DNA of 64,000 nt from NCBI RefSeq assembly GCF_030013595.1, contig NZ_CP122768.1; one strand, written 5' to 3'. Position 1 is the stretch's first letter; every line of letters starts with the position of its first letter. The DNA is from Escherichia coli (GTDB lineage Bacteria > Pseudomonadota > Gammaproteobacteria > Enterobacterales > Enterobacteriaceae). The translations under genes were made by a program, and so were the position numbers. The notes below the pieces were generated by a model. That model saw nothing but the letters and a program-made list of their open reading frames with translations, was not told the origin of the DNA and did not search any database. Below, piece after piece: positions 31,804-32,999 of this stretch.

Positions 31804-31930
31804 TAGGAAGTAAGTTTTATGTTGACGGCACAGTCAACTTGGCATAGATTAATTAAACCAAGCCCAGCCCCGTTCGCAGACAATTGTTAATATCTGCATA
31901 ACGGCTCTGGGCTATTTTTTTGGGACTCTT

Positions 31931-32788
31931 ATGAAGAAAGCAGCAATTTTAATTGATGCGGGTTTTTTCATGCAGCGTGTTCATGCTACGCATCGTAAAC
32001 ACTTCGCCGAGCATGAACTGACTGCGCAATGCATAATGAAAGTAATATGGTCAATGGTTCTTTCCCATCTTAATGGAAAACGTCAATCACAAGAACGTAG
32101 GGAACCGCTTGAGCTTTATAGAATTTACTTCTATGACTGTCCACCACTCGACATTCAAACACGCCTTCCACTTCCTGAGCCTGGCAATAAGACGCCTGGT
32201 CGCAAGAATTTCAAACTCGAAAAATCATATATTCTGAGAACGGAGCTGCATGAAGAGTTAAGAAAAACTCGAAAAACAGCCTTAAGATTAGGGAATCTTG
32301 TTGATAATAAGCGATGGCAACTAACTACATTCTCCCTTGATGCTCTGATGAAAGGAACGAAAAAATGGGATGAACTGACAAATGATGATTTTTACTATGA
32401 CATCAAACAAAAACAAGTTGATATCAAGCTAGGGATGGATATCACGACTTTAGCTTATGAAAAACTTGTTGATGTAATTGTCCTTGTTGCTGGGGACTCA
32501 GACTTTGTGCCTGCCGCCAAACACGCCAGAATTAAAGGTATTGATTTTATTCTTGATCCACTAAGACAGAATGTTACCCCATCACTGTCAGAGCACATTG
32601 ATGGAGTTCAGTCATACAGCTTGATATCAGGACTTGCCGATGCTTTACATGTTGAGCCAGACCCGGCACCTGACTGGTGGGAAGATCGAAAAAAAGGCAA
32701 GCCTAGAGGAAAAAACAATAGCGGTAAACGCAGGTATGGAAACACTCAAGCTGAGTCAGCAAAGAAACATCAAAGAAATAAACGATAA
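31931..32788 (+). CDS. NYN/PIN-like nuclease-domain protein (285 aa) with basic C-terminal tail, in rexAB position
   Basis: N-terminal AILIDAGFF, central VDIKLGMD, distal DVIVLVAGDSDFVP motifs consistent with NYN (LabA-like) fold; Lys/Arg-rich tail; AT-rich; co-oriented downstream of cI. Confidence 0.75.
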   Translation: MKKAAILIDAGFFMQRVHATHRKHFAEHELTAQCIMKVIWSMVLSHLNGKRQSQERREPLELYRIYFYDCPPLDIQTRLPLPEPGNKTPGRKNFKLEKSYILRTELHEELRKTRKTALRLGNLVDNKRWQLTTFSLDALMKGTKKWDELTNDDFYYDIKQKQVDIKLGMDITTLAYEKLVDVIVLVAGDSDFVPAAKHARIKGIDFILDPLRQNVTPSLSEHIDGVQSYSLISGLADALHVEPDPAPDWWEDRKKGKPRGKNNSGKRRYGNTQAESAKKHQRNKR

Positions 32789-32797
32789 TCCCATCAA

Positions 32798-32824
32798 CCC
32801 GGCCACCGAGCCGGGTTTTCTTTG
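32798..32824 (+). terminator. rho-independent terminator after the NYN gene
   Basis: cccggc-caccga-gccggg hairpin followed by TTTTCTTTG. Confidence 0.6.
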
Positions 32825-32999
32825 CCTCACGCCCCCACCTAAAGACACATAACCAAATGTATTTATTGAAAAATAAATAGATACAACTCACTAAACCACG
32901 CAATTCTGATCTCTCCTTACATCGCCGAGGCGATACACCCACGCTAAAAAACAACACTATTAAATACAAAGCGTTATAAAAAATCACCCCATTTTAGAA

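Follow-up and report, generated by a model that had tools for sequence, protein, structure and literature searches.

A 64,000-nucleotide (nt) stretch of DNA from Escherichia coli (assembly GCF_030013595.1, contig NZ_CP122768.1; hereafter the window, meaning the whole stretch at its full length) includes a lambdoid immunity region in which a gene encoding a protein with a NYN (PIN-like) nuclease domain is located between a cI-like repressor gene and a pL-like promoter followed by an N-like gene. In lambda, rexA-rexB occupy the slot between cI and pL, and the placement of the NYN gene in the rexAB slot by a first-pass annotation of the window was correct. Between the promoter of the NYN gene and its ATG there is a hairpin, followed by a U-run, a feature that the first-pass annotation missed. 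The coordinates of these and neighbouring features are listed in Table 1.

The 285 amino acid (aa) open reading frame (ORF) is present and intact, and the same ORF is found in an E. coli genome with one base difference. In two E. coli RefSeq records (L001 and L002, both 4128-4985) PGAP splits the gene into a partial 'PIN domain'/'hypothetical' pseudogene and a 146-aa NYN gene. The pseudogene reading was rejected, as the 285-aa ORF is intact in L001 with one substitution relative to the window, and the split is an annotation artefact. RefSeq names the protein "NYN domain-containing protein". Pfam PF01936 (NYN) matches residues 158-205 with an independent E-value of 1.1e-8 and, among the 120 homologues listed, is present in every one that spans the domain, and TIGR00288 matches residues 100-207 with an E-value of 5.5e-7 that lies under that model's curated cut-off. 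A confident AlphaFold2 model made from 39 homologues (pLDDT 87.7, pTM 0.80) has the three layers, α/β/α, of a PIN-like fold. The NYN/PIN-like fold proposed from the letters of the sequence is therefore borne out by both a profile hidden Markov model and the predicted structure, and the three aspartate motifs on which that proposal was based are present, namely AILIDAGFF (D9), VDIKLGMD (D164, D170) and AGDSDFVP (D189, D191). In an alignment of the 39 homologues, which have 41-86% identity to the query, D9, D69, D164, D170, D189 and D191 are invariant, as are R114, K115, R119 and W129 of the inserted subdomain described below. The model positions D9 at the end of strand 1, D164 at the start of the helix that follows strand 154-161, and D189 and D191 after strand 182-186, as predicted for an acidic metal site of the NYN type, and inserts a subdomain (residues ~70-155) between core strands. 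The Lys/Arg-rich tail noted in the first-pass annotation is real but is poorly conserved, variable and disordered, and the model of it has low confidence. No PDB entry is related to the protein at the sequence level; the protein is a new member of a known fold family.

MARF1, LabA/VPA0982, Rae1/YacP and Regnase/N4BP1/KHNYN have the same fold and acidic active-site residues, and several eukaryotic NYN proteins are antiviral RNases or are autoregulated via stem-loops in their own mRNA. The protein encoded in the window differs from these in having an inserted subdomain of ~85 residues, conserved N-terminal features and a dedicated upstream RNA. The gene could not be assigned to a named system, in agreement with the first-pass annotation. 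With PADLOC there were only two matches, both weak and confined to 40-46 residues, one with HEC-09 (46 residues, E 2e-4) and the other with a generic NYN model (E 1.4e-3); in PADLOC-DB 2.0 there was no match to a component of RexAB or of a named defence system beyond these weak ones, and NCBIfam returned nothing beyond a generic NYN match. The PHROG family, phrog_5783, is listed as of unknown function, and the literature searched contained nothing on this NYN family or RNA, or on NYN proteins in prophage defence of this kind. HEC-09, described as a NYN protein embedded in Hma systems with MARF1-like aspartates and proposed to be a defence RNase, has the NYN domain in common with the protein in the window; the match extends weakly over 46 residues and the architecture is different.

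The hairpin proper is 53 nt in length (31861-31913) and is followed by an A and seven U residues (31914-31921), with a Shine-Dalgarno-like GGGA directly after the U-run and the ATG at 31931. Its centroid fold has an energy of -25 kcal/mol (z -2.5 relative to shuffles). Transcripts that come from the NYN promoter, or from cI, meet this terminator-shaped structure 10 nt ahead of the ORF. Too few nucleotides separate the U-run from the ATG to accommodate another promoter, and NYN expression must therefore come from read-through. The description of the gene as a stand-alone single gene in the first-pass annotation consequently does not hold; a conserved structured RNA with a terminator belongs to the unit and must gate its expression. 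Searches of Rfam 15 found nothing overlapping the window hairpin at E-values up to 10, and nothing upstream of the NYN gene in eight diverse loci at E-values up to 1. With R1, a covariance model built only from NYN leaders, the leader in the window, which is part of the training set, scores 81.5 bits.

The order in relatives is promoter, hairpin with U-run, 8-57 nt and then the start codon. All of the 38 unique upstream regions taken from viral and E. coli loci have this order, at protein identities from 100% to 46%, and a hairpin arranged in this way precedes homologues with identities from 100% to ~40%. The arrangement is also found in four further plasmid, island and prophage loci and in most of 80 species-level genome loci from at least six phyla, among them Gamma-, Beta- and Alphaproteobacteria, Myxococcota, Acidobacteriota, Verrucomicrobiota, Elusimicrobiota, Rhodothermales, Ignavibacteria-like bacteria and Bacteroidota. 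Bacteroidota-type viral and genome loci keep it with promoters of the TAnnTTTG type; an extra inner stem-loop is present in Bacteroidota leaders. Many Rhodanobacteraceae loci (L159-L180, from Rhodanobacter, Dyella and Fulvimonas) are an exception and have a simpler G+C-rich hairpin, with the loop CCCAUCC and no U-run. Across phyla, no partner other than the NYN protein accompanies the RNA.

In 19 type-A (enterobacterial and pseudomonad) hairpins, 94.7% of the cells are paired and 13 of the 17 pairs have changed on both sides, values reached in none of 500 shuffles; in controls in which the partner was slid, pairing is at most 45.5%. For stem P1, 38 sequences from many phyla are 86% paired and have 74 double-changed cells versus 24.5 in shuffles. 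As a MAFFT and RNAalifold alignment of all phyla placed only P1 consistently, the inner stem was evaluated by folding native stems and chimeras. In the other phyla the sequence of this stem is wholly different from lineage to lineage and yet it always pairs, with a mean energy of -9.5 kcal/mol for native stems versus -5.5 kcal/mol for chimeras of unrelated partners. Most non-enterobacterial phyla have conserved junctions between the two stems, YAGUAM on the 5′-side and CGANC on the 3′-side, and leaders with these junctions (including L157, L185, L187, L194, L197, L199, L207, L211 and L217) lie ~20-60 nt upstream of the NYN gene. The AGUA/GA junction presumably resembles a motif of the loop-E or sarcin-ricin type. 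In the 19 enterobacterial and pseudomonad hairpins, loop bases U32, U33 and A34 are invariant. The nucleotide identity of the hairpin exceeds that of the coding sequence in six of six comparisons (100/76.8%, 96/74%, 89/69%, 92.5/66.4%, 72/64% and 64/61%). Judged by these sequence comparisons, the hairpin is a constrained RNA and not a drifting terminator.

The first-pass annotation gave the gene its own promoter, and such a promoter is present. As a lone consensus match it is no better than chance in the region; its geometry is retained in 14 of 15 divergent homologous loci, with TTGACN, a 16-18 nt spacer and a -10 hexamer that ends 8-12 nt before P1 (8-10 nt in 13 of those 14 loci). Given this conserved position ahead of P1, transcription would start at the foot of the stem, at ~31856-31858 in the window, and would generate an RNA of ~65 nt. 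An inverted repeat that overlaps the -35 hexamer looks like an operator. TTGAC-N3-9-GTCAA is found at the same place in 15 of 134 unique upstream regions, versus 0.135 expected from shuffles, and examples in L141, L084, L074, L073, L149, L227 and L203 have N6 or N9 spacers that differ in sequence. The NYN module itself encodes no regulator for this repeat. It is unlikely to be an operator of the resident cI, as the module moves between phages with different repressors. The NYN promoter was also considered as a mimic of pR′/qut that senses Q, and this was rejected, there being no visible similarity to pR′ and the module being present in phyla that do not have Q proteins.

The retention of unpaired bases within a terminator stem, YAGUAM/CGANC in many phyla and the UUA loop in enterobacteria, could be explained if the internal and apical loops bound a small molecule or infection factor that weakened termination and so switched the NYN gene on. 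The HMP-PP riboswitch is a precedent for an aptamer embedded in a terminator. Such a sensor is nonetheless very improbable: riboswitch classes usually control several gene families of one pathway, whereas here there is one protein family plus phage late and lysis leaders, the internal loop is nearly closed in the enterobacterial form and, with transcription starting at the stem, there can be no alternative antiterminator structure.

We consider, tentatively and at a probability of about 0.4, that the hairpin and the gene form a two-part mobile module in which the hairpin RNA is a ligand or check of the NYN nuclease, in the manner either of toxin-antitoxin pairs of type III or of an autoregulatory leader. 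A constitutive-looking σ70 promoter would fire at the foot of a hairpin RNA of ~65 nt that ends in an intrinsic terminator, and only polymerases that read through would reach the Shine-Dalgarno sequence and ORF of the putative metal-dependent nuclease, so that a cell would make much hairpin RNA and little nuclease. The hairpin would throttle synthesis of the nuclease in cis. In addition, the nuclease would be held in check by binding to the hairpin, which it perhaps cleaves, much as happens with the antitoxin RNAs of type III systems or with the leader of an autoregulated RNase. If transcription of the module stopped, or if the RNA was displaced in the course of an infection, the free nuclease would degrade RNA, and the outcome would be exclusion, abortive infection or an addiction of the cell to the carrier element. 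The order of the elements is that of a type III locus as it would be transcribed, with the RNA first, then a Rho-independent terminator and then a gene in the toxin position. The type III systems ToxIN, CptIN and TenpIN are similarly organized, with one promoter, a non-coding RNA, a terminator, a nuclease gene expressed by read-through and carriage on mobile elements. Together, the RNA and the nuclease appear to form a variant, not previously described, of toxin modules under RNA control.

There are also likenesses to other prophage loci. Lambda RexAB occupies the same slot, and the NYN gene is presumably likewise expressed in the lysogen, but there is no homology; the NYN module consists of one protein plus an RNA, has its own promoter where RexAB relies on co-transcription from pRM, and is set apart from cI by a terminator. 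BstA-aba, reported by Owen et al., is a prophage defence with an effector encoded beside the repressor and tempered by a cis-encoded nucleic-acid element for self-immunity inside the locus. The NYN module similarly has an effector gene beside a repressor and a nucleic-acid element within the locus; BstA is, however, a KilA-N-type protein, aba is DNA and there is no homology.

A second match to R1 in the window is a copy of the lambda-type late terminator tR′ (Table 1), located downstream of the Q gene (24510-25133, - strand) and a pR′-like promoter and followed by genes for tRNA-Asn (24161-24235) and tRNA-Thr (24080-24155) and then the lysis genes. Over the first 93 nt of the query, a stretch that takes in the hairpin, there is 96.8% identity to lambda 44689-44781, the 3′ part of the 6S RNA, which ends at tR′. 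Lambda's own tR′ scores 63.7 bits and has ~68% identity to the NYN leader over the 53-nt hairpin. The family core, GUUCGYAG...UUA...CURC...AACGG plus a U-run with a high R1 score, is present in the NYN leader of the window. A lambdoid IMG/VR contig (3300011920_000033, here L126) has a copy at 3560-3626 that scores 80.5 bits, with stems and loops identical to the NYN-leader version. It encodes a Q of another family (phrog_753), followed by a leader, the hairpin as late terminator, tRNA-Arg(tct), a holin and an endolysin, and has no NYN gene. Two virulent Chaseviridae, BSBP01 (L094 3000-3065) and Shigella phage vB_Shi_2KOFFS (L095 2-67), have a 98%-identical copy of only the hairpin and U-run before their lysis genes, with R1 scores of 70.7-72.6 bits and no NYN gene; in their relatives phiEcoM-GJ1, TH24 and SA91KD, a tRNA-Arg gene is in exactly this slot, and phage ST32 likewise has tRNA-Arg in place of the hairpin. 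The copies of lambda tR′, L126 and the Chaseviridae were outside the training set of R1 and, on these scores and identities, the NYN leader and lambda tR′ belong to the same RNA family. The link of tR′ and the 6S RNA to a NYN module is unexpected. BLAST searches with Pseudomonas-type and Edwardsiella/E. albertii-type hairpins found no more copies lacking a NYN gene among GenBank phages.

Two more general associations were tried and rejected. Membership of the family does not extend to all lambdoid tR′, as those of the phage-21 type (Sf6, BTP1 and Stx2 phage 1717) score 13 bits or less, nor do phages with a NYN gene always have a second tR′-type copy, as 2B8 and ev099 have the leader copy only. 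In Stx2a phage EH0505 the second copy arose by duplication of an immunity fragment, which has lost its NYN gene by deletion and adjoins an IS element.

The lambda pR′-tR′ unit and the NYN module thus have an RNA of one family and, in both, a constitutive promoter generates a short terminated RNA ahead of dangerous genes. The lambda 6S RNA is 194 nt long and is read through by polymerase with Q loaded at qut, whereas the NYN RNA would have a 5′-tail of ~5 nt, no recognizable qut and no known antiterminator. The main rival explanation is plain attenuation, in which the hairpin is only a very efficient terminator inherited with the gene, a dangerous lone nuclease is kept at a low level and the nuclease itself senses infection; this amounts to the single-gene effector of the first-pass annotation with tight control of its expression added. 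The hairpin has a classic terminator shape and, because it serves as tR′, it terminates well; family members are the late terminator, before the lysis genes, in lambda and in another lambdoid phage, and single-gene nuclease defences are common. Yet a weak promoter would be a simpler route to low expression. Terminators normally drift, and here bases in loops and junctions are kept and conservation at the DNA level is higher for the hairpin than for the coding sequence; furthermore, the arrangement persists across phyla with the promoter abutting the hairpin in 14 of the 15 loci compared. Plain attenuation is accordingly a possible explanation, and we rate it as rather unlikely.

The copies that lack a NYN gene, in lambda tR′, L126 and the two Chaseviridae phages, fit an RNA that acts in trans. 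A doubtful alternative is target mimicry, in which the NYN RNase would cut the tR′-type late leader of incoming lambdoid phages and so block late gene expression, with the copy in its own leader providing negative feedback. All late transcription in lambda passes tR′, the tR′ of lambda and of L126 are strong family members, and RNases are often autoregulated via structured leaders (rnc, rne and pnp are examples). The phage in the window has both a NYN gene and a lambda-type tR′, however, and would target itself on induction, most lambdoid tR′ (for example, of the phage-21 type) are outside the family, there are no lambdoid phages on which the homologues of Bacteroidota, Acidobacteria and other phyla could act, and the gain of the hairpin by virulent Chaseviridae is left unexplained. 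A further suggestion, also with the odds well against it, casts the hairpin as cognate inhibitor of an immune effector or toxin, the widespread NYN nuclease, that phages counter by making the same RNA, in which case the lambda 6S RNA and the Chaseviridae hairpin could, at least in part, be anti-NYN decoy or self-immunity RNAs. To our knowledge, the lambda 6S RNA, although abundant, has been without an assigned function for 50 years. PhiTE is reported to escape from a type III system by means of an antitoxin-like RNA, pseudo-ToxI, to which the hairpin copies without a NYN gene would be a parallel.

The NYN family is large: a protein search gave ~7,000 clusters, and its loci number at least 557 in viruses and at least 591 in genomes at the species level. 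Its genes sit in the usual places of accessory or conflict genes. They are in the immunity region in the phage of the window, in E212, 2B8, ev099 and Stx2a phages and in the P22-like Proteus phage Brookers; in E. albertii-type prophages the gene is between Q and the lysis genes, on the opposite strand; in P. syringae, Halomonas and Shewanella it is at prophage or island ends, beside an integrase or recombinases. Acinetobacter homologues are on Rep3 plasmids beside a YoeB module, those of P. aeruginosa are in a plasmid or island region beside HigBA, and in Pantoea the gene is in a variable chromosomal region. Among 5426 complete E. coli genomes, the hairpin is present in 274 and the full gene in 73. 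In the O157:H7 EDL933 prophage CP-933H (L098) the NYN gene is truncated while its promoter and hairpin, and the repressor, are retained; many O157:H7 genomes similarly keep these three elements beside a NYN gene that is truncated or has an internal deletion, and internally deleted copies are present in AU5Stx1 (L096) and EH0505 (L233 10850-11300).

Within the window, the segment 31785-32869 is common, at 99% identity, to ~48 Stx2a-converting phages that have a different repressor, and the NYN segment therefore moves as a cassette. The last ~20 nt of a window-type cI gene are also present in the Stx2a phages between the resident repressor and the NYN module, so that the cassette seems to have come by recombination from a phage with the immunity type of this window. 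A 113-aa ORF lies in the same interval (EH0505, L233 14747-15088). The G+C content of the gene region (0.36-0.44) is lower than that of its flanks (0.41-0.50), and the description of the gene as AT-rich in the first-pass annotation is thus correct in direction, but the difference is modest.

Several points weigh against a two-part module. We infer the transcription start, the excess of RNA, RNA-protein binding, toxicity and an anti-phage effect; what the analysis shows is a NYN fold with conserved acidic residues, the architecture of the unit, and an RNA that is co-inherited with the gene, covaries and is kin to lambda tR′. The shuffle controls ignore the relatedness of the sequences; as the slid-partner controls and the variety of pair types agree, the structure is still supported. 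A type III antitoxin consists of tandem repeats that are processed by the toxin, but the NYN leader is a single hairpin and no tandem repeats were found in 31700-32900. Type III toxins have a ToxN/Kid-like fold, in contrast to the NYN/PIN-like fold here, and PADLOC, whose models include abortive-infection and toxin-antitoxin types, gave no match to ToxN, CptN or TenpN. As the repeat antitoxin and the toxin family are lacking, the module is likened to type III systems and is not filed as a member. The hairpin is an ordinary late terminator in lambda, and much of the architecture is therefore explained if it acts only in cis, as a tight terminator ahead of a dangerous gene. HEC-09, only a distant relative, gave no protection in phage panel tests.

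The remaining points concern genomic position. The first-pass annotation held that homologues mainly in non-phage housekeeping contexts would speak against its proposal, and most of the homologues sampled are in mobile elements, but those in Proteus and Rhodanobacter are at fixed chromosomal sites. In Proteus the gene is beside glmS and in Rhodanobacter denitrificans (L160) it adjoins adhC/frmA, and such fixed sites are unusual for genes of toxin-antitoxin or defence systems. L159, L160 and L164 share the end of the upstream gene; the fixed site in Rhodanobacter, together with the simpler hairpin without a U-run, fits a mobile conflict gene poorly. Such positions, in Proteus and across genera of Rhodanobacteraceae, are those expected if the protein was not part of a conflict system at all and was an RNA-processing or regulatory nuclease, autoregulated by its leader and useful for host or phage gene expression, that is merely carried by phages. 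The bacterial NYN proteins Rae1/YacP and LabA have housekeeping or regulatory roles, and the family has no known defence phenotype. The patchy distribution of the full gene in E. coli argues otherwise, as do the repeated moron positions, the plasmids, the toxin-antitoxin neighbours and the frequent deletion of the gene with retention of the promoter and hairpin, and we regard this explanation as improbable.

Table 1. Features of the NYN locus and of related or neighbouring elements in the window
Feature	Position	Strand	Basis and details
LexA-family/cI-like repressor gene	31102-31803	+	ORF; PHROG phrog_4, transcriptional repressor, E 8e-60; directly upstream of the NYN gene
Inverted repeat GTTGAC-N6-GTCAAC	31821-31838		Read from the sequence; overlaps the -35 hexamer
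σ70-type promoter, TTGACG-17-TAGATT	31822-31850	+	Consensus scan
Three-part hairpin and U7	31861-31921	+	P1 31861-31867/31907-31913; P2 31870-31874/31900-31904; P3 31876-31880/31893-31897; U7 31915-31921
NYN-domain (PIN-like) gene	31931-32788	+	285 aa; inserted subdomain, residues ~70-155; variable basic tail
Intrinsic terminator after the NYN stop codon	32796-32826	+	Terminator scan (32796-32817) and fold
pL-like promoter	33009-33037	+	Promoter scan; followed by the N-like gene
N-like antiterminator gene	33156-33500	+	PHROG phrog_271, E 6e-26
Copy of lambda-type late terminator tR′	24236-24302	-	R1 65.7 bits, E 6.5e-16

The region is 99.9% identical in DNA sequence to Escherichia phage E212, and the homologue of the repressor is annotated in RefSeq as a LexA family protein. 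A Cro-like gene is divergent from the repressor gene and is followed on the - strand by cII, O, P, the nin genes and Q; beyond the N-like gene, the + strand encodes ral and then bet and exo. The terminator that the first-pass annotation placed right after the NYN stop codon was found there by the scan. Phage HK106 has the same 45 nt in its immunity region, where they carry a terminator annotation, and the element in the window is probably the immunity-region terminator of the phage backbone. Elsewhere in the window, an ORF of 230 aa (21253-21945, +; phrog_13652, unknown function), on the opposite strand to the late genes and just past the lysis cassette, gave no match in PADLOC and may be another moron. 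Two small ORFs of unknown function are located between the holin and endolysin genes (23202-23498, +, phrog_25324; 23523-23741, -, phrog_2735). A gene in the nin region (27425-28012, -) matches PADLOC orphan DNA methyltransferase models (E 2e-19), and RefSeq labels its homologue a phage N-6-adenine methyltransferase.

These results draw attention to a large, neglected family in the classic exclusion slot of lambdoid prophages, including the Stx2a phages of pathogenic E. coli, whose gene travels with a structured RNA that is absent from Rfam and from the literature searched. The kinship of this RNA with tR′ ties a well-studied element of lambda to a nuclease family spread across bacterial phyla and suggests what the lambda 6S RNA might do. 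If the module does function as a toxin-antitoxin-like unit, RNA-antitoxin systems would extend past the three known toxin families and antitoxins of the repeat type. If, in addition, the hairpin was an inhibitor of which phages make decoys, the module would represent a new class of RNA-protein toxin-antitoxin or defence system with an RNA-based counter-defence.

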